Virus record (IMG/VR): IMGVR_UViG_3300020043_005956 | Span: 2,241 to 66,240 of that record | Length of the DNA stretch: 64,000 bases | Direction: 5' to 3' (one strand) | Source of the DNA: a virus | Taxonomy: Duplodnaviria; Caudoviricetes | Shown here: positions 4,834-47,870 of the stretch, piece by piece | Layout of the letters: each line of letters starts with the position of its first letter | Position numbering within the stretch: position 1 is the first letter of the stretch | Notes under the pieces: model-generated | Seen by the model: only the letters and a program-made list of their open reading frames with translations | What the model was told of the DNA's origin: nothing | The model's database searches: none | Translations under genes and position numbers: made by a program

Positions 4834-5076
4834 TTACATTGTTTTTAATGGTTGTAAGTCTATTGGTTGCCCATCAAGGCCGTAATCGCAAGTCCAACCT
4901 ATTTGTTCCAAGGCTTCAACGAGGTCGGCGCAACCTTGATAGTCGCTGTCGCCTTGCATAACTTCCGCCCAGCTTGCATCGGGGTCGTTTATTAAATCTT
5001 TTACCTGCCTAAGGTCGTTCTGTTGCGCTTCGGGCAACGTGTCGAAGTCTGCTAAAATTTCAAAATAGTTTTGCAT
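4834..5076 (-). CDS. conserved small phage protein
   Basis: YQGCADLVEALEQIGWTCDYGLDGQP resembles a motif I recall from Bacteroidota phage proteins. Confidence 0.7.
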   Translation of the reverse strand: MQNYFEILADFDTLPEAQQNDLRQVKDLINDPDASWAEVMQGDSDYQGCADLVEALEQIGWTCDYGLDGQPIDLQPLKTM

Positions 5077-33946: not shown

Positions 33947-35497
33947 ATGGCATACATAGTTTCACCATACGCAGGAGCAGCAGAATTTCCAAGCGACAAT
34001 CTACCAGCGCAGCTTTTATCACAAGGTTTGCAAGCTGGCTACGCTCGCCGTATGAAAGAAATGGAGAACAAGATGAAGTTGCAGGAAGAGGGGAAAAAGG
34101 CTTTTGATGAAGCGTATAAATACGCAAAGCTTGATTTAAGCAAGGTTGACCCAGTTTACCACGATGAGTTAAAGAGTTTATCGGATAATTTGGGTAAAAA
34201 TATGGTTGCTGCTTATCAAGACAACCCAAGAGCGTTTTCAAACAATACCGCCATTGCAGAAGATATTCGAAGGTTAAACACGCTTAAAACCGAGTATGAA
34301 GCTCTAAGTTCTGATATACAAAAGGCGGATGACGCTCAAAGGCAACTTAAACAAAAAGGAGACTTTGATATTACCCCTACTGAAAATAGAAAAATACTTG
34401 ATGCTTTGCGAGTTGAAAAAGACCCTGCTAAAAGGAAGGAATTATTTGAAGCATTTAAAGGTGGGTATAGAGGCGGCGAATTAGATGCAGTAACGCTTAA
34501 AGTTGCACCTTATAGGCTTAATGATTGGGCTCAAGAGGTTGAAAACTTGCAAAGGCAAGTTAACTTAAGGGAAGAGCCTTATCCACAAAAGGAATTTGTT
34601 ATTAAAACAGTAACAAATAACCCCAAGAAGCTAAAAGATATTGCAGATGAAATTGGCGTTGACGCTTCAACACCCGAAGGAATGGCGCAAGTTGAAAAAG
34701 CACTTGCATCTTATTTGACGGAAAACAAAAAACCTGCTCCGCAAGGTGGGGGTTATGGATTAGGTTATGCTTCTTCCATAACAAATCCAACACCTGGCAG
34801 AGTGGATTTTGGTATGACTACGGAAAAACAAGGGGGAGGAACAATGACGGCACAATCTTCTGTTACCTCGCCCGCTCAAATTACTTTTTCTACTGCAATG
34901 CCAACAACGCTTGTTCAACCATCAGTTTCATATGGTCTTGAAAATGGTAAAACATTAAATACCGATGCTGATTTTAAGGATAACAAGCTACTTGAGGTTG
35001 CTTTGAGTAAAGTTGCTTTATTGCCTGTATATAAAAAGGGCGTTACAAGGAAAGGCGGGGTTGACGTTTCGGGAGAAATTGTTGACGACTTGAATCTTAA
35101 TGATGAAAGATTAAATGGCAAATATGAGTATAAGGTTTTTGCAATAGGCCAAGGAACGAAGGAAGTTAGTGCAGGTAGCAGAGGCAAGGAATTGATAACA
35201 AAAGATTTGTATATCCCAATAAATCAAGTAAAAGACGCAGTTTGGGATAAACTTGCCCAATCAGAAAAGGAAAGCGTTATGAAGAACATTTTTGATATGA
35301 AGGAATTGGCGAGAGATTATAATTCTAAATTAACTCCACCTTCAAGTAGCGGAAAGCCTGCTGCTGAAAAGCCGAAGGGTGAGGCAAATAAAAACGTAGG
35401 AAAAATAATTGTTTTAGTAAACGGCAAACAAGTTCAAATACCAGAAGACCAATGGGAAAACCTTAGAAAAAAATATCCAAATGCAACAAGACAATAA
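33947..35497 (+). CDS. internal virion/ejection protein
   Basis: helical N-terminus; position before giant cargo genes. Confidence 0.65.
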   Translation: MAYIVSPYAGAAEFPSDNLPAQLLSQGLQAGYARRMKEMENKMKLQEEGKKAFDEAYKYAKLDLSKVDPVYHDELKSLSDNLGKNMVAAYQDNPRAFSNNTAIAEDIRRLNTLKTEYEALSSDIQKADDAQRQLKQKGDFDITPTENRKILDALRVEKDPAKRKELFEAFKGGYRGGELDAVTLKVAPYRLNDWAQEVENLQRQVNLREEPYPQKEFVIKTVTNNPKKLKDIADEIGVDASTPEGMAQVEKALASYLTENKKPAPQGGGYGLGYASSITNPTPGRVDFGMTTEKQGGGTMTAQSSVTSPAQITFSTAMPTTLVQPSVSYGLENGKTLNTDADFKDNKLLEVALSKVALLPVYKKGVTRKGGVDVSGEIVDDLNLNDERLNGKYEYKVFAIGQGTKEVSAGSRGKELITKDLYIPINQVKDAVWDKLAQSEKESVMKNIFDMKELARDYNSKLTPPSSSGKPAAEKPKGEANKNVGKIIVLVNGKQVQIPEDQWENLRKKYPNATRQ

Positions 35498-38400
35498 AGA
35501 TGATTTTTCAGAATTTGGAGGAGTTGTAATTGGCGACGCCCCAAAAAGTGATGATTTTTCAGAATTTGGAGGAGTTGTTATTGGCGACGCCCCTCAAAAA
35601 AAAAATTCTGTTTCAACCACTTCACCGATTGGTGGCAAAGTTGGGGCATCCGCAATCCCTTCTACTGGAAATGAAGTTGCTGGTTTGCTTGGTGTCAAAC
35701 CGATTAAGCCAACTCAATACGCTACTCCTACCCCATTGGTTGAAAAGGCAAAAACGATTGTCGAGCCTGTTGGAAAAAATTATGGACTAAGACCCGATGG
35801 CACAAAAAAAGATGTAGGTTATTTCGGTGAACTAAAAACAAAAAGCGGCAATTCTGTTACTGAATATTCGTTTGGAACTTCGGATGTCAACGGAAAAGAA
35901 ATGGACATTCCAAGTCTTGTTCCAACATTAACTCCGCAAGAGAAGCAATATGTCTTAGACAGGGCAGAAAAAGACGAACCACTTGGGCGTGATGCAATTG
36001 GTAATTCGATTTATAAAAAAGCCGTTGACCATGCAAAGCAAAGGCTGAAGGAAGGAAAAAGCCCGTTTTATAGTTCGGAGGAAGCAAAAAAAGTTTCTAC
36101 GGGTGATGAAGTTGCCAACTTATTAGGCGTAAGAACTGCACCTAAAACTTTAGGCGAACTCGGCCAAACAACCTTGCCATTAGCAAAAGACCAAAAAGGT
36201 TCTGCGCAGCGTGTTACTGCTCTGTACGAGCAAAAAGCTAAAAAAACCGACGATTTTATTCAAGAAAAGAAAAAGCTGAATGAACTTGAGGCGAAATTAA
36301 ATCAAGCCAAAAAGGACTCAGAAGAATACAATGTGATTGTTGAAGATTTCAACAAAGCCGTCGAAAGCCACAATAAAAAACTTGCCGAAAGAGAAATTCT
36401 TGCCAATGAAATAAAGGCCGCCGAAATGGGGTACAGGGAAAAGTATGGAGAAGGCAATAGGCTTGGATATTTTTATAATTCTTTCTTGAAAGGAATTGGC
36501 GGGATGAGTTCGGGCGTTGCTGATGCTTTTTTTAACGTTGCAAGAAATATTCCTGGCGTTGTTGCACCTTCAATGGAAGGGGAAGATATAACCGAGTTTA
36601 GGAAACAAATAGAACCATCCATAAGGGAAGGATTGAAAGAAAAAGTTGGGGTGGGAATTGTTCCAGAAAAAGAAAAGAAGTACAATGATGAATTTTGGAC
36701 TTCTGCGATTGGTGGGTTAACGGCTTCTGTTCCTGCAATGATAGCCCCATACGGAAGCGGACTAATTGCTCAAGCCTACGATGCAGGGCTTGAATCAATT
36801 AACTCTATTGAAGAAGGTCAAAAGCTACCCGAAACGACGAAAACAATATTTGCATCAAGTGTTGGATTGGCGCAAGGGATGCTTGAAAAGTATGGACTTG
36901 ATAAGATTTTCGGCAAACAATCGGCGGCTGTTTCAAAAAAACTTGCTGCTGATGTTATTCAGAAAGCATTAGCAAGTGGTGAAAAGACAATAACTAAAGA
37001 ATCGTTTGAGGCTGCTTTAAAGCAAAGCGTGTCGGGGCTAAAAGACAAAATAGTAAAAGCGGGAGGAAAAATTGGAGAGGCTGTTGCAGTAGAATTTAGC
37101 ACAGGGGCGGCGCAGGAGGCGTCAACAATTGCGGCTGAAAGATTATTGAATGCAAGTCAAGGAAAGGATGTTTTCGAGCCAACGTCTTGGGGAGAAACGA
37201 CAGGAAGGATTTTGTATGCAGGTTCACAAGAAGCTGTTGGGGGAGGGCTACTTGGTGCTGCTTCTGCTCCATTTAGCAAGACCAGAAATTACATAGCTGA
37301 AAAAGTTGCAGATGCGAAAACGCAAGAGGATTATCAGGCGTTAAGAAAAGAGTTTACTGAAAACGTAAGCCCTGAACAGGCAGATGCTGCAAACAAAATT
37401 ATTGACTATTACGCCAATGTGAACTCAAAAATACCTGACAATGTACCTAACAGAAAAGAGGTGATTGAAAAGGTTGTTGAAAGGGACGATATAAAAGAAG
37501 AGATTGCAAGGAAACAGCAAGAGTTGGAGCAAGTTGACGAGGCTTTTCGGCCTAAGATACAAGAGGAAATTGACGCATTAAACGGAAGGGTTGCGGAGTT
37601 AAATGAAGAAATTGCCAATCCTGTCATAGCCCAAGAAGCTGTTGTAGAAGAACAACCATCCCAACCAATCATCACGAAAAACACCACTCCAACAGACGAA
37701 AAGTATGGAACTATTGATAGGGGTGACGGCAAAGGTGTTATAGACTTAACAAGGGCTGAATACGAAGCGGAGATTGCAAAGCAGCAACCCGCCCAAGCCT
37801 TTGAGGAAATTCCAGAAATTTCTGAAGAAAAAAAATCTTTAGAAAGCGAGATTTTATCAGAAGAAGAATTTATAAATAAAACAAAAAATAACAGAAATTT
37901 TTTCAGAAAGATATTGGATAAAATTGGAGGTGTTAGTTATGATAAATATTTAAAGAATGCAAAAGAAAAATTGGCTTTATTAGAAAAAAACCCTTTAGCT
38001 TATTTTGAAAAAGAATTAAATGCTGAAATTGAATGGGGTAAAAAAGACCCAAGTGATATTAATGAAGGACTTATAGAATACTACAAGGGTGCTATCGAAA
38101 AATTAAAAAATCAACAACAAAAACAGCCTACCGCCGAAGAAGTTGTTGTTGACGAATCCCCCGCTTTTGAAACTGACCAAACTGAGGCGGCACAACCGAT
38201 TGAATTAAGTGTTGGGGAAGAAGCCATAACGCCCCAAGAAGAGCAACCTACTCAACAAGGCGAAGAAAACGTAAATCCTGCCTTAAACGACGTTGAGAGT
38301 AAGGCTAAAGCGTTGGAGCTTAAAAATGAAGGTAAAGCTGATACTCCAACAAAAGAAAATGTTACAGAAAGGCTTAGTATTAATAATCCATTTTATAAAA

Positions 38401-41084
38401 AAGTAGAAGACGCTTTAGTTAAATTAGGATTAATAGAGAAATATAACGCTCAAACCAAGACAGGAGATGTGGTTGGTGGGTATGTTCAGGAAACTTCTGA
38501 TGGAGGTTTTAGTGCAGGGAAAATGCTTTTTAGCAAAAATGGTGAAATAAGTTATTTAGATGGTAATGGGAATAAAGTTTCTTTTGATAAAAACGGTAAT
38601 GTAATATCTGAAAACACTAAACAAGTTGCACAACAAGCTAAAAAAACAGAAATTGAAGCAACTAAATTAAGTATTACATCTCTTGAAAAAACAAGAGATA
38701 GCGAAGCGTTTAAATACAAAGAAGCAACGGAAACAGATATATTAGGCAATAAGAAAAAGGTAAAAAGATTAAAAACACCACAAGAGCTAAAAGAAAGTAC
38801 AGACAAAATAAATAATGCTATTGATAAAGCCAAAGCAAGGCTTGTTGAATTGGAAAATTCAGAATCCCCTGTTGAGAGTACAGCTAAGGCGTTGGAAAAA
38901 GAATTTAATAAAGGAAGTGTTTGGTTGCCAAGTGTAGAAATGAATGTGGGAGATAATCCAGCAAAAAAAATCTCCGAAGCCTACCACGCCGATAAAGCCG
39001 CAGAAAAGGAAACCGAATTAACAAAAGCAGTTGAAAAATTATTAACCACAAATACAAACCAAAATGAACAAAAAACCAAAATTGGGGAGCGGGGAACGCT
39101 TCAAGAAAATGACCAACAAGTTGGAGAAGGAGGGCAAGTCCAAGGAATCAGCGAAGAAAATCGCCGCATCAGCGGGGATGAAAGCCTACGGCAAAGCCAA
39201 GATGCAGAAGATGGCACAGGCGGGCAAGAAGAAAATGTAACGGAACAAGGGGGTGTAACAGCCCCCGTTACCGAAGAAAAGATTGAAGCAACTGCCACCC
39301 AAGCTAACATTAAACCAAAGAACCTTCGTGACTTATACAACGTCAATAGAACGCTTTTTGGGCAAAATAAAGTAAGGTCACTTGCCAATGCGGTTATTAT
39401 GGACAAGATGATTGGCGCAATGGCAAAACGTGCAGGGGTTATCAAAGCAGAAATGTATGAAAGGTTGGAGTTTAGGAAGGCGAGCGAAGAAGAGTTGCCA
39501 CAAGGTGTTAAAATGCAAGTTGACGCTTGGCACGGCAGCCCATATCAATTTGACAAATTCACAACCGAAAAGATAGGCACGGGCGAAGGCGCACAAGCTT
39601 TTGGGTGGGGATTGTATTTTACGGATTTGGAGAGTATCGCAAGAGGATATGCGCAAAACCTTGCAACTTTAAATATAAAAACAACAACTCAACAAATTTC
39701 AGATGCAGTAAAAAAGTTTAACATAAAAAACGGTTTGCCAAGTAATTATAACTATTCAATACTTGCAGATGTTTTAGTGTCAAACAATATGAATATTGAC
39801 AAAGCAATTGATTTTTACAATAAAAGCATACAAAAAAGAACAGAAGATTATAATAATCCTGAAAACAAATTCAGGGCTGGATATTTGTTGGAGTCAATAA
39901 AAGACGAGCAATCTGAATTAAAAACTTTAATTGGACTAAAGGAAAACAATACTTCTATTAAGCCTCCAGAAAGGTTGCTATACAAGGTTTCACTTCATAA
40001 TGGAAAGAAACCAAGCGAATATACTTGGTTAGAGTGGGATAAGCCTTTAACAAAAGAGCAAAGAAATATAATTATAAAAGCTATTGAAGATAAAGACTTT
40101 AAAACAAGGACTGCTTATGGAAACCCTTTAGAAGTTGTTGACACTTTAGGTACAACTGGCAAACAAGTTTACGAATCACTTGCTTTTGAATTTGGTCAAA
40201 AACAAGCTTCGTTACTTCTTTTAGAAAATGGAATTGATGGCGTTAAATATCCAGCCGAAAGCATAGCAAGAGCCGCAACATCTGACACGGCAAGAGGTTT
40301 TAACTATGTAGTATTCGATGAAAACGCAGTAAGTATAGAAGAAGTAATTAAGTTCCAAAAAGACGCTAACAAAGCAAGGGGCGCAGCTATGGTGAATATA
40401 GATGGAACTGCCATCATCTACGCTATAACCGACCCTAACGTATCAACTCCTTTACACGAACTTGCTCACGTTTTTGAACACTACCTTAAAGACTACGAAA
40501 GGGAAACAATCATTCGTAACGCAAAAACAAATGGGTGGACAACCGAAACAAGTGAATATTTTGCAAGGGGCTTTGAAAAATATCTTGCCGATGGAGTTGC
40601 CCCAAGTGCGGAAATGAAACGTATATTTGAGCGTTTCAAAGAATGGCTTACCGAAATTTACAATGGAGTAACGGGAAGCGAAATAAACATACCTCTCAAC
40701 GATGAAATGCGTGCCATATACGCAAAAATGTTGGGCGAAGAAGAAGTTGCTAAAACACAACCAAATGAAACAAAAACAGAACAAGAAAAGCCCTTGCTGG
40801 AAGGGGTACGAAATGGTGGGAATGAAGCCCAAGTCGGGCAAGAAAGTGCCGAACTGCGTGCCGAAGCCAAAAACCAAGAAGAAGTAAAAGCAACCATTGC
40901 AGATGCCGTAGCGAAGTTTTATGCTATTGAAGGCAAAGGTTCTCAAAAGCGTGAGGCAGCAAAAGCGTATAGGCAAACTTTAGAAAAAATGCCAACGGTA
41001 AAAAACATTTTTGACAATATAAAGCCTATATTTGCACAACTTGAAAGAGAAGGAATTATAACAAAATCTAAAGAATGTCCATAA
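35481..41084 (+). CDS. giant polyvalent cargo protein with ART-PolyVal-like and HExxH segments
   Basis: AWHGSPYQFDKF...GEGAQAFGWGLYFT...GIDGVKY...NYVVFD; TPLHELAHVF. Confidence 0.8.
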   Translation: MQQDNKDDFSEFGGVVIGDAPKSDDFSEFGGVVIGDAPQKKNSVSTTSPIGGKVGASAIPSTGNEVAGLLGVKPIKPTQYATPTPLVEKAKTIVEPVGKNYGLRPDGTKKDVGYFGELKTKSGNSVTEYSFGTSDVNGKEMDIPSLVPTLTPQEKQYVLDRAEKDEPLGRDAIGNSIYKKAVDHAKQRLKEGKSPFYSSEEAKKVSTGDEVANLLGVRTAPKTLGELGQTTLPLAKDQKGSAQRVTALYEQKAKKTDDFIQEKKKLNELEAKLNQAKKDSEEYNVIVEDFNKAVESHNKKLAEREILANEIKAAEMGYREKYGEGNRLGYFYNSFLKGIGGMSSGVADAFFNVARNIPGVVAPSMEGEDITEFRKQIEPSIREGLKEKVGVGIVPEKEKKYNDEFWTSAIGGLTASVPAMIAPYGSGLIAQAYDAGLESINSIEEGQKLPETTKTIFASSVGLAQGMLEKYGLDKIFGKQSAAVSKKLAADVIQKALASGEKTITKESFEAALKQSVSGLKDKIVKAGGKIGEAVAVEFSTGAAQEASTIAAERLLNASQGKDVFEPTSWGETTGRILYAGSQEAVGGGLLGAASAPFSKTRNYIAEKVADAKTQEDYQALRKEFTENVSPEQADAANKIIDYYANVNSKIPDNVPNRKEVIEKVVERDDIKEEIARKQQELEQVDEAFRPKIQEEIDALNGRVAELNEEIANPVIAQEAVVEEQPSQPIITKNTTPTDEKYGTIDRGDGKGVIDLTRAEYEAEIAKQQPAQAFEEIPEISEEKKSLESEILSEEEFINKTKNNRNFFRKILDKIGGVSYDKYLKNAKEKLALLEKNPLAYFEKELNAEIEWGKKDPSDINEGLIEYYKGAIEKLKNQQQKQPTAEEVVVDESPAFETDQTEAAQPIELSVGEEAITPQEEQPTQQGEENVNPALNDVESKAKALELKNEGKADTPTKENVTERLSINNPFYKKVEDALVKLGLIEKYNAQTKTGDVVGGYVQETSDGGFSAGKMLFSKNGEISYLDGNGNKVSFDKNGNVISENTKQVAQQAKKTEIEATKLSITSLEKTRDSEAFKYKEATETDILGNKKKVKRLKTPQELKESTDKINNAIDKAKARLVELENSESPVESTAKALEKEFNKGSVWLPSVEMNVGDNPAKKISEAYHADKAAEKETELTKAVEKLLTTNTNQNEQKTKIGERGTLQENDQQVGEGGQVQGISEENRRISGDESLRQSQDAEDGTGGQEENVTEQGGVTAPVTEEKIEATATQANIKPKNLRDLYNVNRTLFGQNKVRSLANAVIMDKMIGAMAKRAGVIKAEMYERLEFRKASEEELPQGVKMQVDAWHGSPYQFDKFTTEKIGTGEGAQAFGWGLYFTDLESIARGYAQNLATLNIKTTTQQISDAVKKFNIKNGLPSNYNYSILADVLVSNNMNIDKAIDFYNKSIQKRTEDYNNPENKFRAGYLLESIKDEQSELKTLIGLKENNTSIKPPERLLYKVSLHNGKKPSEYTWLEWDKPLTKEQRNIIIKAIEDKDFKTRTAYGNPLEVVDTLGTTGKQVYESLAFEFGQKQASLLLLENGIDGVKYPAESIARAATSDTARGFNYVVFDENAVSIEEVIKFQKDANKARGAAMVNIDGTAIIYAITDPNVSTPLHELAHVFEHYLKDYERETIIRNAKTNGWTTETSEYFARGFEKYLADGVAPSAEMKRIFERFKEWLTEIYNGVTGSEINIPLNDEMRAIYAKMLGEEEVAKTQPNETKTEQEKPLLEGVRNGGNEAQVGQESAELRAEAKNQEEVKATIADAVAKFYAIEGKGSQKREAAKAYRQTLEKMPTVKNIFDNIKPIFAQLEREGIITKSKECP
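35500..35592 (+). repeat. 51-bp tandem duplication encoding DDFSEFGGVVIGDAP twice
   Basis: gatgatttttcagaatttggaggagttgtnattggcgacgcccc twice. Confidence 0.9.
39064..39240 (+). CDS. overprinted small basic protein (58 aa, +1 frame)
   Basis: MNKKPKLGSGERFKK...AKKIAASAGMKAYGKAKMQKMAQAGKKKM; A/C-rich start context. Confidence 0.7.
   Translation: MNKKPKLGSGERFKKMTNKLEKEGKSKESAKKIAASAGMKAYGKAKMQKMAQAGKKKM
40765..40887 (+). CDS. overprinted small basic protein (40 aa, +1 frame)
   Basis: MKQKQNKKSPCWKGYEMVGMKPKSGKKVPNCVPKPKTKKK. Confidence 0.72.
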   Translation: MKQKQNKKSPCWKGYEMVGMKPKSGKKVPNCVPKPKTKKK

Positions 41085-41611
41085 TGATACTCGATTCTCC
41101 AATGATGGTTATGCCTGAGTTTCCAAAAAAACTTGACGCAAAGATTGTTAGCCTATTAATGCCACGTTTAAATGACGAGTACAAGGCTTTCTACTTCTAC
41201 CGAGCCGCTTCAAATTACTGCAAAGGTGTAGGTTACGAAAAAGCCGCAGAGTTCTTTGCAGCCGAATCTCTTGACGAACTTTCCCACGCAAAGGGTATTG
41301 AAACGTACCTTGTTGATTGGAACATTGACGTTAATTTGCCTATCGTTGAAACCCCACAAATTGTTTTTAGTGGACTATTTGAGGTTCTTGTAAAGGCTTA
41401 TGAACTTGAGTACAACCTTTGGAAAGAGTACAACGACACTTCTGATGAGATTTTTGGCAAAGGGGATATTGCCACGTTTAACTTCCTTAGAACATATACG
41501 GATATACAAACCAAGTCTGTTGCTGAATACAGCGACAAGCTAAATATGCTTCAAGGGGTTAATGTGATGAGCAAGTTTGAACTTCTTACTTTAGAGAAAA
41601 AATTATTCTAA
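41075..41611 (+). CDS. ferritin-like protein
   Basis: LNDEYKA...FFAAESLDELSHA...AYELE...ATFNFL...Q..SVAEY ferroxidase-type four-helix pattern. Confidence 0.85.
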   Translation: MSIMILDSPMMVMPEFPKKLDAKIVSLLMPRLNDEYKAFYFYRAASNYCKGVGYEKAAEFFAAESLDELSHAKGIETYLVDWNIDVNLPIVETPQIVFSGLFEVLVKAYELEYNLWKEYNDTSDEIFGKGDIATFNFLRTYTDIQTKSVAEYSDKLNMLQGVNVMSKFELLTLEKKLF

Positions 41612-41612
41612 T

Positions 41613-44600
41613 ATGGCTTGCGAGGTTAAATACCAAGGGCAGACACTTTCTTTTGAAGAGTTTGCCGAAAAGTTGCATAATGGACTTTTGGACGAATTTA
41701 TTGCCCAAGGTGTTGTTAAGAATGTACCAACCATAAAATCAATTCAAGATGCCGTACAAAAGCAAAGCGCAGAGGGCGTTCTTTCACGCCAACAAGGAAA
41801 AGTTGGAGAAGCAGGGGGTGAACGTCAAGGAATGGGACAAGGCAAGCAAGGGCAAGAAGCTGCCAAGCCGAGCAAAGAAGAAATAACTTCCGCAGAAGCA
41901 ACGGTTGCTCTTGATGAAGAAACCGAACTATTGCTTGAAGGACTTGCCGCAGAAAGGAGAAGGGCGGGCAAATATACAGTTGACGGAGTAACATATACAA
42001 GAAACGAAAAAGGACAAGGTATTGTTTCGGAGAAAGGTGGGTATATTAGGTTTACAAGCGAACCTGGCGGTGGTGGCGTTGTCGTTCCTTTTAGATACAA
42101 ACTTGCTGAAGCAAAAAGAGTTCAGCCTTCACACGAAGGAGGTTTGAGAAATCCAAATTTCTTTATACCCGAAGGTCAACCAAAAAATAGAAACGACCAA
42201 GCAAGTTTGCAAGCAGAAGATGATTTTGCAAACAACCCAAGGTTTGATGAGCTTGGAGAAGATTCAGGGGCGTATAAAGGTGCGCCTGTTGCAAATGAAA
42301 GGGATGAGATTATTCAAGGGAACAGCAGGGGTGCTGGAATTAAAAAAGGATATGCTATTGGCAATAAAAAGTACAAGCAAGACTTAGCTGCAAATGCAGA
42401 GAAATTTGGATTTACCAAAGAACAAGTTGAAAGTATGGAAAACCCAATGCTTGTTCGTGAGGTTATTGCAACTGATGAAAAAGCTATTGAACTTGGAAAC
42501 TACGATGTAAAAGACCTTGAAACCGCAGGAAAAAGAAGGATTGACCCTTCTGCTCTTGTTCGTAGGCTTCCTTCAAAAGTTAAAGCGAGCCTTGCTAAAG
42601 TTATTTCAGCAGGGGAAACGATTAAAGAATCTATTAAAGAAAATGCGGATGAGATTTATCAACTTATACGTCCGTATATCAATACAAGTATTGCCAACAC
42701 TATAATCACAAATGGCAAATTAAATTCTGTTGGTATTGAGGACGTTGAGGGCTTATTTACGCAGTTCTTGTTTCAGAATGGCGACCCAAACCTTCCTCAA
42801 ATGTTTGAAGGTTTGTCTAATACACAACGTGAGGGCATTAAAAAGGCTTTACCATACTTGCTAAGTGCAGGAGCAGGCAAAAGTATCATACCCGATGTTC
42901 AAGAAGCGATAATTGCTTTGCATTATTTTAGGTCAAGCGGTGAACAAAGTTTTGCTGCGTGGGCTAATCAAATTGACATTAATACAGGTCAATCCAAAAA
43001 GGATATGTTTAGCCCTTTGGCTTTGAAACTTGCCGAAAATTTCAACAAGGCAACAAGTCAAAACGAAATTGCAGGTATTCCGCAAAAAGGTGGAGAGGCG
43101 AGCAGTTTTGCTAAGTATAGCCAATTAACGCAAGGAACGGAAGGCGGGTTATTTGAAGAAGCCCAAGAGGGTATGTCAAGGCAAGATGCGGTAAAGGAAG
43201 CGTTTGGAGTTGAATATACGCCAAGAAAAGGATATACAAGTGCTGCTAAGTTTGAGGAAAGTGAAGCTAAAAGAAAGGAAATAGAGAAAGAAAAGGCTGA
43301 AAAGGAAAAGGCTAAACAAACAAAGAAGGAGATAAAAGAAAAGCTTAAAACAGCTCAAGAAGCATTAAACAGAACAAAAGAGCAACTTTCTGAAATTGAA
43401 AGACTGAAACAAAGTGCTGCTTCAAATTTAGAAAAAATACTTTCAAAAATTGGTGGAATACAAAATATAACACCACAAGAAAGAACAAAGCTTGTTGAGG
43501 ATTTAAAAAATATTATAAAGGATTTAACAGCCTTAACTTATTTAGAAATAAAAAATCTACTTGCTCCGATTTTAACAAGAAAGGGTTTCTCTGAACTTGA
43601 AGCAGAGGATATAATAAATGAAGCAGCAAGTGATTTCATTTCAGAAGAAGATGCTTATATTGGTTTAACAAACGAATACGATAAAGCACAAAGGGCGGCA
43701 AGGGGATTAGACCCAATAGCAAAAGCCGCAAGGCAAACAAACCAAGTGGTTTGGGATAGAACAGTTGAGCGCATACAAAATGGAAATATTGTATTAAGGG
43801 ATAAGACCAACACAGGGCTTATTTCAAAATTAGCCACAGGAGAAATAGAAGCAATTAGCCCTGAAATACAAGCCGCTATTTTATATGATAGGATATATCT
43901 TCAAAATGCTAAAGAGGCGTATGTAAAAAAACTTGCCGAGCAAGGTGCTGTTATAACAAACGAGGAAAGGTTAAATATATTAGCTCAATTAGCTGAAATT
44001 GATGCACATATTCAAGAAAACGAATTAGCCAATGCGAATGTTGGAAGAACCTGGGGAAGAACAGGCGTATTTAGGCAGGTTTTAGCGGCAAGAGATTATA
44101 CATTAAAAGGTGTAATTTCAAGAGCGAAGGCAATGAATGGAGGTGCATCGTTAAGCACAGAGCAAGAAGCGAAGCTTGTTAAGTTAACCGAGCAATTTGC
44201 TGAACTGCAAAAGGATTTAGACAAAATTCAAAAGGCTTTTGATGAGCAATTAAAAATAGAAAAAGAGATAGCTCGGAAAGAAGGATATAACAAAGCAAAA
44301 ATGGAGGTTTCTTCTGTTCCTTCTTCTTCTACTATAAAGGAAAAGTCAAAAGAACTTGCCAATAAGCTTAGGGCTGCAAAAATTACAAGTTCTACATACA
44401 CCTTTAGTTCTGTTGTTCCAATACCTCCAACGGTTGTAAACGTGGGTATAGAGGCTGCGGCAAAGTCTATTGAAACTGTTGGTACTGTTGCTGATGCAAT
44501 AGCAAAGGGTATTGAAGCTATAAAAAATGAGGCATCAGGTTGGTATAAAAACTTGACACCACAAGAAAAGCAAAGGTTCGATAATTGGTTTGGAGGATTT

Positions 44601-47600
44601 GTAAACGAAAAACTTGCAGAGCCAAAACAAGAAAAGAGGGGGGCGAAATCTACTGATGAACTTCTTGTTGACCTTGCTGTAAAAGCGGATGGAGTATTAA
44701 CTGACGAAAGCTGGGAGCTTGAGCCGTTGTTAAAAAATATTCTCAAGCAAGAGGTTATCAATGGGGCGGAAACACTTGATGAAGTTGCTGAAAAGGTTTT
44801 TGATTTTCTTTCCAATTCAGTTCCTAATCTTGATATTGAAGATATAAAAGACTTGATGAGTGGTTATGGTAGTTTTAAAGAACTTAGCAAAGACCCGCTT
44901 GTTGAAAAGATAAGAAAGCTAAGAAACCTTGGAAGGCTAAATGGTAGGTTGAGGGATGTCAAGGAAAGGATGAAATTGCCAAAAAGAACAGGAAGGGAAA
45001 TTGCAAAATTAGATACCGAAGCTCGTGCAATAAACAAGGAAATTGGCAGACTGATAAAGGAGTTGGGTTTGGCATCAGAACCAACAGAAGAAGAAAAGAT
45101 AAACAAATGGAAGAGCCAAAGGGATGCTGTTGTTCAAAGGTTAAAAAACAAAATAGAGGACTTAAATAGACAAAAAGAACAAAAGCAACGAGATGCCAAA
45201 GTTAAAAAAAGTCAAATAACGGACGATGTAATAAAAGACCTTCAAGACCAAATTGAATCGCTTGAAAACACATTGAGCAATATACCAGAGGTTAAGATAA
45301 GTGATGCAGAGAAGAAAGTTGAAAGCAAAATTGTTGACTTAGAAAATAAAATTACCGAGGCCAAAAGAAAGATAAGAGAAAACGATTTAAGTATAAAATC
45401 TTTTGAAAAGGTTACAAGCCCTGAAATAGAAAGTTTGCAAAATGAGTTGTCTGACTTAAATTCAACTCTTGCCAAAATGAGGGAGGAAAATAAAACCTCT
45501 GTTGAGAAATTAGCAGAAGCTCAAAAAAGACTTGACTTATTAGCAAAGGCGGAAATAAAAAGGCTTGAAGAAATTAGAAACAAATTAATTTTAGAAGGAC
45601 TTACTGACGAGGAAGTTAAAGTTTCAACGACACAAAAACTTGGCGAATTATTTGGAATAGCTAAAACCAAAAAAGCCAGTTTAGCGCAAAGGGGCGATGC
45701 GCTACAAGCAACTATTGACCAACTAAAAAGGGATATAAACGATTTAATACCATCGGAAGCGAAAGAGCAAGCTTTAATTGATAAAGCAATAAAAAGAAGA
45801 GAAGCGGTTTTAAAAGCATTAGAAGAAAAGCTTGCGAAGGGTAATTTTGAAAAAAGAAAAACAAGAATTATACCTTACACAAAAGAACTTGCAGAGGTCA
45901 ATGCGAAGATTGAAGAAACAAAACAAAAGATAGATTTTGAAATTGAAAAAATAAGACTTGCAAATAGGACATTTTGGACAAGATTGGCTGAAAATCTTTT
46001 TGATGTTTTAAGTTTGCCAAAATCATTGGTAGCAAGTATTGACTTGTCAGCCCCGCTTAGGCAAGGTATCGTTTATGCTTATACAAAGCCTGGAACATTT
46101 TTAAAAGCATTTTTCGAAATGCACAAGTTTGCCTTTAATAAATCCGCTTATGAAAATTGGCAAAAATCTGTAAAGGCAGACCCAAGATATGTTGAGTTCA
46201 CAAAACAGTACGGGTTGTATATGGCAGAAGAGAGTGGCAAGATGAGCGCAAAAGAAGAAATGTTTGTTTCTAAATTTGTAGGTGCTATTAAAAAAATACC
46301 TGTATACGGTCAACTTTTGGCAGGAACAGAAAGGGCGTATATTGGTTTTTTAAATAAACTACGTTGGGACGTTTTCAACTCCTATGTAGATATGGTTAAT
46401 GATATGCCATTAACTGTTGAAGAAAGACAGCAAGAGTTAAAAGAGCTTGCTAAACTTGTAAACAATACAACGGGCAGAGGCTCTTTAGGGGTGCTTTCGG
46501 GAGCTAAAAAACCGTTAAATGTTTTATTTTTCTCTCCAAGTCTTGTTGCTTCAAGGTTTCATCCGTTTACTGCTGCCGCAAGGATGTTATTTCCTGGCGA
46601 CAAACCAATGCCTCGTGTGGCAAGAAACCAAACTATTGAAACCTATGCTAAATTCTTTGGTGGATTAGCCTTAACTATGTTTTTGATTAAATTTGGACTT
46701 GGGGATGATGATGATAAAGATGTTGAGTTTGAACCAATAAGTTCGGACTTTTGGAAAATAAGGCTTGAGGATATTAGGACTGATTTAACGGGCGGCTATA
46801 TTCAACCTTTTGTTGTATTGGCTAAAATTTTTGGTGGTTCAAAAAATGCAAACACAGGCGAGGTAAAGAAATTTGGTGATGAAGGCTATGGGGCAACGAC
46901 AAGAATGGATTTGCTTGAAACTTTTTTTGCAAATAAATTAAACCCTACCGCCTCTTTGTTTTATAAAGAATACTTAGTAGGTGTGGAGGGCAAGAAAAGG
47001 GATAGAAACAAGCTGTATGAGTATATGTTTGGCGAAATACCTAACAACGACCTTAATATAGGAGAAACTGCATTCAACCTTACAACTCCGTTATATTTAA
47101 GAGATATGGCAGAGATAATAAATGAAGAATCAAAATATGCTCCAATAGTAGTTCCTCTCGCTTTATATGGTTCGGGAATAAATAAATTTGGAGGAAAGAC
47201 TATGCTTACTCCAAATACAAAAGAATACATAAAAGCAAAGACCTATTCTATTGTTCCTGCAAGAACAAGCACGGATAAGAAAATTGATTTTTATATTTTC
47301 AAAAAAGATGGAAGTGTTATAAATACAGAAAAGAATGAGTTTTTAAATAACCAAAGTTTAGAGAAATATAACAGCTACGCCAATGAGAATTACAAAAAAA
47401 TGGTTTTAAATTTAAACGATAAGTTTATGCAAAGTTTAAATGAAAGCCAAAGGGCGGAGGTGATGAAAACGGTTAAACAAGAGGCTGATAAAATTGCAGA
47501 GATTCAGATAAATATGGACATGCAAAAGACTGTTGTTTTGCCGAGCGAGGCGGCTAAAATGAAAAAGGATTTTGAAAAAGAAATTCAATTTTTTTATAAT

Positions 47601-47870
47601 GATTTAAAAAAGTATCAAAATCCAAATGAAGAAAACAGGGCTTACGATTTTGTTAAATTTAAAGAATCAATAAAAGGGCAAGGGGAGGCAATGGAAAAAT
47701 ACTTATTTAAACCCAAGAATATTTCTTCTGGGCAGTTTGATAAAATAAATCAAAAAGTTGGATTTGTTTATAAGAACAAAAAAGAGCTTGCCGAAGCGTA
47801 TATTGAAGCATTAAAGTCAACCAATAAAACAAAGCAGCAAAGGGAACTTATAAAAGCAGTTGAAGATTAA
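41613..47870 (+). CDS. giant polyvalent cargo protein with DdrB-like ParB domain and long coiled coil
   Basis: RYKLAEA...QPSH...QPKNRND...GAPVAN...IIQGNSR; SIDLSAPLRQG in the C-terminal part. Confidence 0.78.
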   Translation: MACEVKYQGQTLSFEEFAEKLHNGLLDEFIAQGVVKNVPTIKSIQDAVQKQSAEGVLSRQQGKVGEAGGERQGMGQGKQGQEAAKPSKEEITSAEATVALDEETELLLEGLAAERRRAGKYTVDGVTYTRNEKGQGIVSEKGGYIRFTSEPGGGGVVVPFRYKLAEAKRVQPSHEGGLRNPNFFIPEGQPKNRNDQASLQAEDDFANNPRFDELGEDSGAYKGAPVANERDEIIQGNSRGAGIKKGYAIGNKKYKQDLAANAEKFGFTKEQVESMENPMLVREVIATDEKAIELGNYDVKDLETAGKRRIDPSALVRRLPSKVKASLAKVISAGETIKESIKENADEIYQLIRPYINTSIANTIITNGKLNSVGIEDVEGLFTQFLFQNGDPNLPQMFEGLSNTQREGIKKALPYLLSAGAGKSIIPDVQEAIIALHYFRSSGEQSFAAWANQIDINTGQSKKDMFSPLALKLAENFNKATSQNEIAGIPQKGGEASSFAKYSQLTQGTEGGLFEEAQEGMSRQDAVKEAFGVEYTPRKGYTSAAKFEESEAKRKEIEKEKAEKEKAKQTKKEIKEKLKTAQEALNRTKEQLSEIERLKQSAASNLEKILSKIGGIQNITPQERTKLVEDLKNIIKDLTALTYLEIKNLLAPILTRKGFSELEAEDIINEAASDFISEEDAYIGLTNEYDKAQRAARGLDPIAKAARQTNQVVWDRTVERIQNGNIVLRDKTNTGLISKLATGEIEAISPEIQAAILYDRIYLQNAKEAYVKKLAEQGAVITNEERLNILAQLAEIDAHIQENELANANVGRTWGRTGVFRQVLAARDYTLKGVISRAKAMNGGASLSTEQEAKLVKLTEQFAELQKDLDKIQKAFDEQLKIEKEIARKEGYNKAKMEVSSVPSSSTIKEKSKELANKLRAAKITSSTYTFSSVVPIPPTVVNVGIEAAAKSIETVGTVADAIAKGIEAIKNEASGWYKNLTPQEKQRFDNWFGGFVNEKLAEPKQEKRGAKSTDELLVDLAVKADGVLTDESWELEPLLKNILKQEVINGAETLDEVAEKVFDFLSNSVPNLDIEDIKDLMSGYGSFKELSKDPLVEKIRKLRNLGRLNGRLRDVKERMKLPKRTGREIAKLDTEARAINKEIGRLIKELGLASEPTEEEKINKWKSQRDAVVQRLKNKIEDLNRQKEQKQRDAKVKKSQITDDVIKDLQDQIESLENTLSNIPEVKISDAEKKVESKIVDLENKITEAKRKIRENDLSIKSFEKVTSPEIESLQNELSDLNSTLAKMREENKTSVEKLAEAQKRLDLLAKAEIKRLEEIRNKLILEGLTDEEVKVSTTQKLGELFGIAKTKKASLAQRGDALQATIDQLKRDINDLIPSEAKEQALIDKAIKRREAVLKALEEKLAKGNFEKRKTRIIPYTKELAEVNAKIEETKQKIDFEIEKIRLANRTFWTRLAENLFDVLSLPKSLVASIDLSAPLRQGIVYAYTKPGTFLKAFFEMHKFAFNKSAYENWQKSVKADPRYVEFTKQYGLYMAEESGKMSAKEEMFVSKFVGAIKKIPVYGQLLAGTERAYIGFLNKLRWDVFNSYVDMVNDMPLTVEERQQELKELAKLVNNTTGRGSLGVLSGAKKPLNVLFFSPSLVASRFHPFTAAARMLFPGDKPMPRVARNQTIETYAKFFGGLALTMFLIKFGLGDDDDKDVEFEPISSDFWKIRLEDIRTDLTGGYIQPFVVLAKIFGGSKNANTGEVKKFGDEGYGATTRMDLLETFFANKLNPTASLFYKEYLVGVEGKKRDRNKLYEYMFGEIPNNDLNIGETAFNLTTPLYLRDMAEIINEESKYAPIVVPLALYGSGINKFGGKTMLTPNTKEYIKAKTYSIVPARTSTDKKIDFYIFKKDGSVINTEKNEFLNNQSLEKYNSYANENYKKMVLNLNDKFMQSLNESQRAEVMKTVKQEADKIAEIQINMDMQKTVVLPSEAAKMKKDFEKEIQFFYNDLKKYQNPNEENRAYDFVKFKESIKGQGEAMEKYLFKPKNISSGQFDKINQKVGFVYKNKKELAEAYIEALKSTNKTKQQRELIKAVED
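41749..41886 (+). CDS. overprinted small basic protein (45 aa, +1 frame)
   Basis: MPYKSKAQRAFFHANKEKLEKQGVNVKEWDKASKGKKLPSRAKKK. Confidence 0.72.
   Translation: MPYKSKAQRAFFHANKEKLEKQGVNVKEWDKASKGKKLPSRAKKK

Follow-up and report, generated by a model that had tools for sequence, protein, structure and literature searches.

The window analysed here, by which we mean the whole stretch of 64,000 nucleotides (nt) from position 2,241 to 66,240 of the IMG/VR virus record IMGVR_UViG_3300020043_005956 (a 66,240-bp virus of the Caudoviricetes with direct terminal repeats), contains three short open reading frames (ORFs), here designated pep1, pep2 and pep3, which probably function as genes for small proteins and lie inside two giant polyvalent-protein genes of an uncultured phage, in the +1 frame of these hosts. 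As judged by profile comparison, each of the three ORFs falls into a separate, widely distributed family of small basic phage proteins, whose members also occur free-standing and as in-frame modules, and the host frame across the small genes specifies an acidic Glu/Gln/Gly stretch of low conservation which separates enzymatic domains. Since these families are old and widespread and the small genes show much higher conservation than their surroundings, the linker frame of the host would be the younger of the two, which argues for capture of existing genes and not for de novo overprinting. The hosts and the nested ORFs are located in the window as follows:

35481..41084, + strand: host giant ORF1, a polyvalent-type protein of 1867 amino acids (aa), hosting pep1 (host aa 1195-1254) and pep2 (host aa 1762-1803).
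39064..39240, + strand: pep1, 58 aa, basic, isoelectric point (pI) 10.4, in the +1 frame of ORF1 (hidden Markov model E = 2.1e-27).
40765..40887, + strand: pep2, 40 aa, basic, with a PCWKGY...VPNCVP core, in the +1 frame of ORF1 (hidden Markov model E = 5.2e-20).
41613..47870, + strand: host giant ORF2, a polyvalent protein of 2085 aa, hosting pep3 over host aa 46-91.
41749..41886, + strand: pep3, 45 aa, basic, in the +1 frame of ORF2 (hidden Markov model E = 6.2e-30).

Each small ORF begins 1 nt past a host codon start, thus lying in the +1 frame, and is fully nested, and the coordinates, peptides and start contexts quoted for the three ORFs in the initial annotation of this DNA were all recovered from the sequence. 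The three peptides have a pI of 10.3-10.4 and a Lys plus Arg content of 33-35%. The host-frame segments across the overlaps are acidic (pI 4.2-6.4), of low complexity and rich in Glu, Gln and Gly, and 60-75% of their residues are E, Q, G, D, N, S or T as compared to 42-46% in the whole host proteins, in agreement with the earlier description of this frame as a low-complexity Gln/Glu/Gly linker. The remaining out-of-frame ATG ORFs of at least 25 aa in the three giant ORFs of the window mostly represent hydrophobic off-frame translations, and none of them is at once rich in Lys plus Arg (at least 33%), poor in hydrophobic residues and preceded by an A-rich, G-poor leader. The open frame of pep2 runs from 40702 to 40887 (61 aa) with the ATG at 40765 internal to it; the latter was taken as the start since it fits the family N-terminus and is common to all nested copies, and since the upstream ATG at 40702, kept in the relative L260, is missing in the close relative L002 (fetched loci are designated L followed by a number). 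For pep3, AlphaFold2 predicts a compact mini-protein of three short helices (mean predicted local distance difference test score, pLDDT, 90.4), which found no counterpart at E <= 0.001 in a fold search of the PDB (best E 6.3), and the model of pep1 is a helix hairpin of moderate confidence (pLDDT 73.5).

The family profiles were built from free-standing homologues and then run on the ORFs of the window. Among the candidate small proteins 188 of 192 (24-79 aa) matched pep3 at E <= 0.01, and all 20 candidates for pep1 and all 174 for pep2 matched; free-standing homologues, as supposed in the initial annotation, do exist. The 120 pep3 matches listed share 66-91% identity and are called as genes in public assemblies. 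A comparison of the pep3 profile with 1.84 billion cluster representatives returned 1108 matches at E <= 0.001, including 355 at E <= 1e-10, and among the best 150 of these 1108 many are 44-110 aa in length and many are larger (up to 1022 aa) with the module at residues 1-47. By tblastn pep2 matched 235 GenBank phage records, mostly cyanophages, and it also matches nine PHROGs of unknown function. The first Met is invariant and the core conserved in the alignments of all three families. No usable name was obtained for pep1 or pep3 from Pfam, PHROGs or NCBIfam, and pep2 belongs to no Pfam or NCBIfam family; among GenBank phages there was no match to pep1 or pep3 by tblastn or blastn, or to the family members P0109 and P0126 by tblastn, where the low-complexity filter may mask Lys-rich matches. 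An assignment of pep3 to DUF3008, suggested by the likeness of its MPYKSKAQ start, was rejected, as PF11450 gave no match at E <= 1 to pep3 or to any of 22 family members; DUF3008 was found in the Atlas only on 15% of one cluster (score 0.88). The assignment of pep1 to Phage_Mu_F was likewise rejected, with 17.8 bits against a cut-off of 29.6 and a match in just one of 21 family members.

Several observations concern the occurrence of these modules elsewhere. The pep2 core (window positions 40792-40866) has 80% DNA identity over 75 nt to a hypothetical gene of cyanophage S-TIM54 which adjoins annotated virion structural protein genes, and this was the sole blastn match of the 4.5-kb region among GenBank phages. 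In locus L182 (2627-4771) a portal-like protein (Phage_portal E = 1.2e-6, below the cut-off) carries a C-terminal extension consisting of DUF3721 followed by a pep2 module, and other in-frame pep2 or pep3 modules adjoin DUF6321, DUF5661, DUF5872, NUDIX, Zeta_toxin and LysM domains. Six proteins with an in-frame pep1 module had no Pfam match.

The extent to which nesting recurs was determined by a six-frame profile scan of the window and 241 fetched loci, a match being regarded as nested when inside an ORF of at least 300 aa. The viral-contig loci comprised the best 80 of 417 pep3, 80 of 247 pep1 and 80 of 583 pep2 relatives, ranked by likeness to the window peptides, so that the nested fractions which follow are not population estimates:

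pep3: 81 matches, of which 29 nested, 45 in a small ORF and 7 in-frame in a larger ORF.
pep2: 88 matches, of which 3 nested, 15 in a small ORF and 70 in-frame in a larger ORF.
pep1: 84 matches, of which 2 nested, 67 in a small ORF and 15 in-frame in a larger ORF.

The frame relation was identical in all 34 nested matches, the small gene invariably being in the +1 frame of its host. Besides the window, pep3 is nested in 28 other giant ORFs, and many of the nested-host ORFs span the whole 8-kb locus. Grouping by similarity of the 200-aa host flanks resolved the 29 nested pep3 loci into 13 clusters, between which the pep3 peptides retain a mean identity of 75% (minimum 62%), and the host domains involved include Kinase-PolyVal, ART-PolyVal, DUF3293/SAM-lyase-like and histidine phosphatase. 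Nested pep2 was later also found in L248, L255, L257, L259, L260 and L261, and nested pep1 in L261. The host-frame peptide, which as bait should favour open host frames, retrieved six pep2 loci, of which three were new (L255, L257 and L259, the peptide of L257 and L259 being identical to that of L165), and no loci were found with the corresponding bait for pep1. Out-of-frame ATG ORFs of at least 30 aa numbered 374 in the 75 giant ORFs of the window and the fetched loci, 357 being in the +1 and 17 in the +2 frame, a bias that could account for the uniform +1 placement of the nested genes.

Other nested ORFs were noted in the same loci. In the nested pep2 variant of L261 (3704-3820) the Trp of the PCW motif, invariant elsewhere, is replaced by Gln. 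A second set of pep3-like, basic, nested +1 ORFs, with the start MPF[KR]SK.Q, is present at L242:4909-5031, L244:4909-5031, L250:2029-2184 and L248:6394-6531, in giant ORFs related to the ART/zincin module of the window, and had no Pfam or NCBIfam match. A further basic, non-hydrophobic, nested +1 ORF of 58 aa occurs at L264:1394-1567, and similar nested +1 ORFs of 37-39 aa at L022:5234-5350 and L042:3172-3282 fall in different flank clusters; these three may represent more nested families.

In nested pep3 the conserved DNA forms an island at the small gene. Among 26 unique nested pep3 copies the ungapped nt identity is approximately 0.31 in the upstream flank, rising to 0.52 at -15..-1 and 0.92 at the ATG, stays at 0.64-0.85 within the gene, and falls to 0.51 at +120..+134, 0.37 at +135..+149 and 0.33 beyond. 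Selection was assessed by the ratio of the proportions of non-synonymous and synonymous differences (pN/pS), and for 25 unique nested pep3 copies the pep3 frame gave 0.23 and the host frame 2.17, values which, like all those that follow, are uncorrected Nei-Gojobori proportions from short ungapped stretches and non-independent pairs and are distorted by the overlap. Free pep3 (30 copies) gave a ratio of 0.21, and in the core of six nested pep2 copies the pep2 frame gave 0.19 as against 1.17 for the host frame. Comparison of the window with close relatives gave 0.06-0.17 in the small-gene frames of all three genes: pN/pS in the own frame was 0.15 for pep1 against L261 (host frame 0 synonymous and 9 non-synonymous changes), 0.07 for pep2 against L002 (1 and 7), 0.06 for pep2 against L260, and 0.07 for pep3 against L002 (0 and 4). 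Taking one comparison per gene (pep1-L261, pep2-L002 and pep3-L002), the host frame accumulated a total of 1 synonymous and 20 non-synonymous changes, and across the overlaps its pN/pS was 0.8-2.2 or there were zero synonymous changes. By comparison, 900 nt of host flank outside the overlaps gave a pN/pS of 0.20 against L002, indicating normal constraint; the corresponding window-L260 comparison of the ORF1 flank was left out owing to indel misalignment (nt identity 0.70). Diversity by pep3 codon position was 0.22, 0.12 and 0.35 at positions 1, 2 and 3, respectively. To judge by these substitution patterns, selection in the nested copies is on the small-gene frame and the host frame is the passenger. 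The expectation that the +1 frame would be open in relatives was borne out, as no stops interrupt it there, and it proved to be constrained in addition.

Non-nested copies nearly always carry a stop in the frame corresponding to the host frame, namely in 30 of 30 cases for pep3, 74 of 76 for pep2 (13 of 13 small and 61 of 63 in-frame copies) and 70 of 71 for pep1, as compared to nested copies, which are free of such stops by definition. It follows that the nested state needs specific synonymous codon choices and that openness of the host frame is not a matter of composition alone. Synonymous divergence was 0.62 in nested versus 0.90 in free pep3, which fits the expectation for a second constraint, that is, avoidance of host-frame stops.

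The gene leaders of this phage are A-rich and G-poor (50% A and 9% G in the last 20 nt) and lack a Shine-Dalgarno motif, and A-rich leaders of this kind are typical of the initiation style of Bacteroidota. The leaders of the three nested ATGs contain 50-65% A and 0-10% G, as compared to 35% A and 23% G for internal ATGs overall, the clearest example being that of pep1:

39039..39063, + strand: leader of pep1, A/C-rich and G-free (last 20 nt: 65% A, 0% G), the proposed translation-initiation region without a Shine-Dalgarno motif.

A position-weight matrix derived from 35 gene starts and scored on 294 internal ATGs ranked the start contexts of pep1 and pep2 second and eighth, respectively. The predicted folding energy from -30 to +30 was -1.9 kcal/mol for pep1, -2.1 for pep2 and -5.3 for pep3, the mean being -3.4 kcal/mol for gene starts and -8.5 for internal ATGs. 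All 29 nested copies of pep3 retain the ATG, above which their own frame is open for only about 1-12 codons, and no conserved in-phase slippery heptamer indicative of a programmed-frameshift site was found at a fixed position of the tail in 26 nested and 36 free pep3 copies. In view of these starts, which look gene-like and are predicted to be unstructured, the kept ATG, the short upstream opening and the missing conserved slippery site, independent internal initiation is much likelier than frameshifting, and ribosomes would start independently at the internal ATGs on late mRNA. A GGAGG motif that precedes the ATG of nested pep3 by 7-9 nt in L018 and L050 was not counted as evidence, as other L018 genes are without the motif and the gene starts of L050 are unclear. 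One freshwater metatranscriptome run contained 6% of the sampled words and yielded five short contigs of a relative, 85-99% alike, of which two (41472-41826 and 41813-41927) jointly span pep3; nothing was recovered from a second RNA run.

Several points weigh against the interpretation of pep1, pep2 and pep3 as working embedded genes, in addition to the limits given above with the pN/pS ratios, the host-frame stop counts and the ranked samples. The start context of pep3 ranked only 47th of the 294 internal ATGs and is just moderately gene-like, the short contigs from the RNA library may be DNA and are evidence neither of expression or habitat nor of absence, and nested pep1 is represented by 3 unique copies and nested pep2 by 6 sequences from approximately 5 lineages. 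No Pfam, NCBIfam or PDB fold match informs the function of the peptides. In the pep1 slot of the close relative L260 (3194-3310) there is a 38-aa basic ORF which keeps the same start and stop and from which internal deletions have removed the family core, which suggests that pep1 is dispensable or decaying in that lineage. Ten viral-contig loci related to the ART/zincin module were scored for nested members of the three families at E <= 1e-4, and only L248 has one, a divergent pep3-like gene being nested in L242, L244 and L250; the host protein thus does not need the nested genes. The remodelled pep1 of L260 and the absence of nested genes from many relatives of the same host module are what would be expected of captured relics, that is, small genes which were fused in, are no longer translated, and remain intact through recent capture or re-import by recombination from free copies. 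We regard this explanation as unlikely, given that the differences among nested pep3 copies, which lie in 13 unrelated flank contexts, are mainly synonymous in the pep3 frame, that the ATG is kept in every nested copy, that all three genes show low pN/pS (0.06-0.17) against close relatives, and that the start contexts are gene-like. In addition, nested copies group together on the pep3 tree (4 label changes versus 20.8 on shuffled labels), so that most of their divergence arose in the nested state.

Frameshift-coupled expression, whereby the giant ORF would shift into the module to yield a truncated product with a basic tail, or a nested start would slip -1 into the host frame to yield a fusion with the downstream domain, could draw on the many proteins of about 120-1022 aa in which pep3 occupies residues 1-47 in-frame, on the presence of pep2 inside larger ORFs in 70 of its 88 matches, and on the Lys-rich and A-rich tails. 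It is very improbable, however, as it has no need of the invariant ATG, the own frame of nested pep3 opens just upstream of that codon, re-entry into the host frame would require a second shift, and only 11 of 26 nested copies of pep3 contain an in-phase X XXY YYZ heptamer (mostly the GGGAAAG of a conserved KGK motif, without a fixed position in the tail), as do 8 of 36 free copies. A purely DNA-level element, with islands kept as recombination linkers for module swaps and the open +1 frame as a by-product, would account for the islands being the sole conserved DNA between otherwise unrelated giant genes, for module-swap breaks directly adjoining them, and for the 80% DNA identity over 75 nt between the pep2 core and a cyanophage. 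Such an explanation on its own is improbable in our estimate, since variation peaks at the third codon position of the small-gene frame (0.22, 0.12, 0.35), a pN/pS of approximately 0.2 is the signature of selection at the protein level and not on DNA identity, and the start codon, the stop codon and a foldable protein (as predicted) are all kept; a DNA-level role could coexist with coding. There is next to no likelihood that the frames are open by chance, as Lys-rich-looking +1 by-products of a Glu/Gln/Gly-rich linker: the +1 frame is indeed generally the more open one (357 of 374 out-of-frame ATG ORFs of at least 30 aa in 75 giant ORFs), yet the three ORFs match profiles of free-standing families at E = 2e-27 (pep1), 5e-20 (pep2) and 6e-30 (pep3), their motifs and starts are conserved, and the other out-of-frame ORFs of the window are mostly hydrophobic off-frame translations.

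The genes pep1, pep2 and pep3 were probably acquired by fusion: small genes lying between or beside cargo genes would have been absorbed when their neighbours fused by read-through in the -1 frame of the small gene. AAR Lys codons read one base early would become GAA, CAA or AAA, specifying Glu, Gln or Lys, and the linker would thus be rich in Glu and Gln because a Lys-rich gene is read one base early. Capture by fusion implies that nested genes sit at the module junctions of the giant proteins. In the five free pep3 loci with junctions read, the gene lies 3-12 nt past the stop of an ORF of 990-1331 aa, and a giant ORF ends 7-16 nt upstream in 8 of 45 free pep3 loci; these upstream giant ORFs had no Pfam match. 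Furthermore, pep3 is also found at the N-terminus of larger proteins as an in-frame module, and a free pep3 plus pep1 tandem (L057) has a nested counterpart (L060). L261 keeps pep1 (95% DNA identity to the window), the pep2 variant and pep3, and is without the module of approximately 500 aa (ART/zincin) that lies between pep1 and pep2 in the window, the breakpoints being at most 8 codons from the pep1 stop and at most 3 codons from the pep2 ATG. In L242 and L244 the pep3-like nested gene (4909-5031) replaces pep1 at the junction upstream of the ART/zincin module. The grouping of nested copies on the pep3 DNA tree (none of 500 shuffles as low as the 4 label changes observed) fits one or few origins followed by spread, on a tree of 117 columns in which many forks are unresolved and in which shared synonymous stop-avoidance could mimic such grouping.

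The closest analogue would be the embedded arrangement of Rz1 in Rz. As Summer et al. reportedly described in 2007, the Rz/Rz1 spanin genes of phage lambda and its relatives are embedded, overlapped or separate across phages. In both cases the small gene lies completely within a larger one, on the same strand and in its +1 frame, Rz1 being translated from its own start, and the arrangement varies, the small genes here being nested, fused in-frame or free-standing; full nesting on the same strand in another frame and purifying selection on the nested frame, by which an embedded pair is recognised, were both found here. In contrast, Rz and Rz1 are two functionally coupled subunits with one pair per phage, whereas here there are several nested genes per phage, from at least three unrelated small-protein families, located in low-complexity linkers of giant multidomain genes at module junctions and much better conserved than the surrounding host sequence. 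Overprinted overlapping genes are exemplified by those of phiX174. As in the overprinted viral genes reviewed in PMC8227390, one DNA stretch here specifies two proteins in two frames, of which one is the passenger; in overprinting, however, the embedded frame is young and taxonomically restricted, whereas the genes embedded here are widespread and the host linker frame is derived. An origin as de novo overprinted genes was rejected in view of hundreds of free-standing relatives and of host surroundings that are unalignable between the 13 flank clusters. The proposal of dual coding in the linkers of giant cargo genes therefore stands insofar as the small genes appear to be real, having homologues and a constrained frame, and fails insofar as it had them arise inside the giants by overprinting, the families being old and the host frame younger.

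With regard to the hosts, ORF1 and ORF2 resemble the polyvalent proteins of Iyer et al. 2017 (PMC5512222) in being giant multidomain proteins with ART-PolyVal-like and ddrB-ParB domains; as far as its main text goes, that paper does not describe genes embedded in linkers, which are a feature of the present case, and the terms 'frameshift', 'overlapping', 'linker' and 'alternative frame' do not occur in it, 'nested' being used only of a hairpin fold. In E. coli the small protein GndA is translated from a nested out-of-frame ORF inside gnd (PMC11230408) and represents a single case, which is not known to have a free-standing family, whereas here nesting recurs in many unrelated hosts and independent forms of the genes exist. 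Literature searches on polyvalent proteins, on nested or overlapping phage genes and on the peptide motifs returned no paper in which polyvalent-protein genes are described as containing nested genes, and none on the motifs. What would be new here is that old small genes have repeatedly been captured into the linkers of giant genes in phages, embedded genes as such being already known.

Nested same-strand genes are normally not called, and ordinary annotation would probably miss those described here, so that conserved protein genes of widespread uncultured phages may be missing from catalogues. Capture by read-through fusion would make the linker of the long gene the new frame, which is the reverse of classical overprinting, and provides a concrete, testable model for the assembly and reshuffling of giant polyvalent proteins. 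The nested cases also offer a natural test bed for internal initiation without Shine-Dalgarno motifs, and each of the three start codons could be knocked out by a change that is silent in the host frame.

As to function, we would tentatively guess, while leaning somewhat against it, that the peptides are basic virion-internal or DNA-associated partners of packaged cargo proteins; the hints are limited to the charge of the peptides, their location in the late operon, and the finding of pep2 modules in the portal-protein extension of L182 and beside enzymatic domains. The part of DNA-condensing or core peptides, proposed for them in the initial annotation, is likewise a guess. A broader synthesis, which we consider doubtful as a whole, would have giant cargo genes built by read-through fusion of gene strings via small basic genes that survive as working +1 genes at the junctions; the DNA islands, as the only sequence common to unrelated giants, would double as homologous-recombination joints for swapping enzymatic modules, and the basic peptides and acidic linkers may pair by charge, loading the peptides onto cargo for packaging.

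Terminase and portal genes lie at 16.8-21 kb of the window and tail-fibre-like genes from 48.7 kb, and the three giant ORFs lie between the portal and the tail-fibre-like genes, in the late structural module. Pfam polyvalent-protein domains were detected in two of the three. In ORF1 an ART-PolyVal match at aa 1350-1398 (E = 9.9e-5, 23.6 bits) is below the Pfam cut-off of 31.2, and in ORF2 a ddrB-ParB domain (PF18763) at aa 158-284 (E = 2e-22, 80 bits) is above the cut-off of 27.6. The label of 'ejection proteins' for these hosts would be based solely on their polyvalent-protein domains in Pfam, and virion packaging and delivery of the giant proteins, which the position between portal and tail-fibre genes supports, may occur. 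At its N-terminus (window positions 35481-35640) ORF1 contains a direct repeat of approximately 19 residues, DDFSEFGGVVIGDAP..., present twice. The two hosts are separated by one further gene, which marks a gene boundary and is outside the dual coding:

41075..41611, + strand: ferritin-like gene, 178 aa (PF00210, E = 7.6e-20).

This gene is wedged between the giant ORFs, overlapping the end of ORF1 by 10 nt and stopping 1 nt before ORF2, and similar ferritin-like genes adjoin giant ORFs in L002, L007 and L042.

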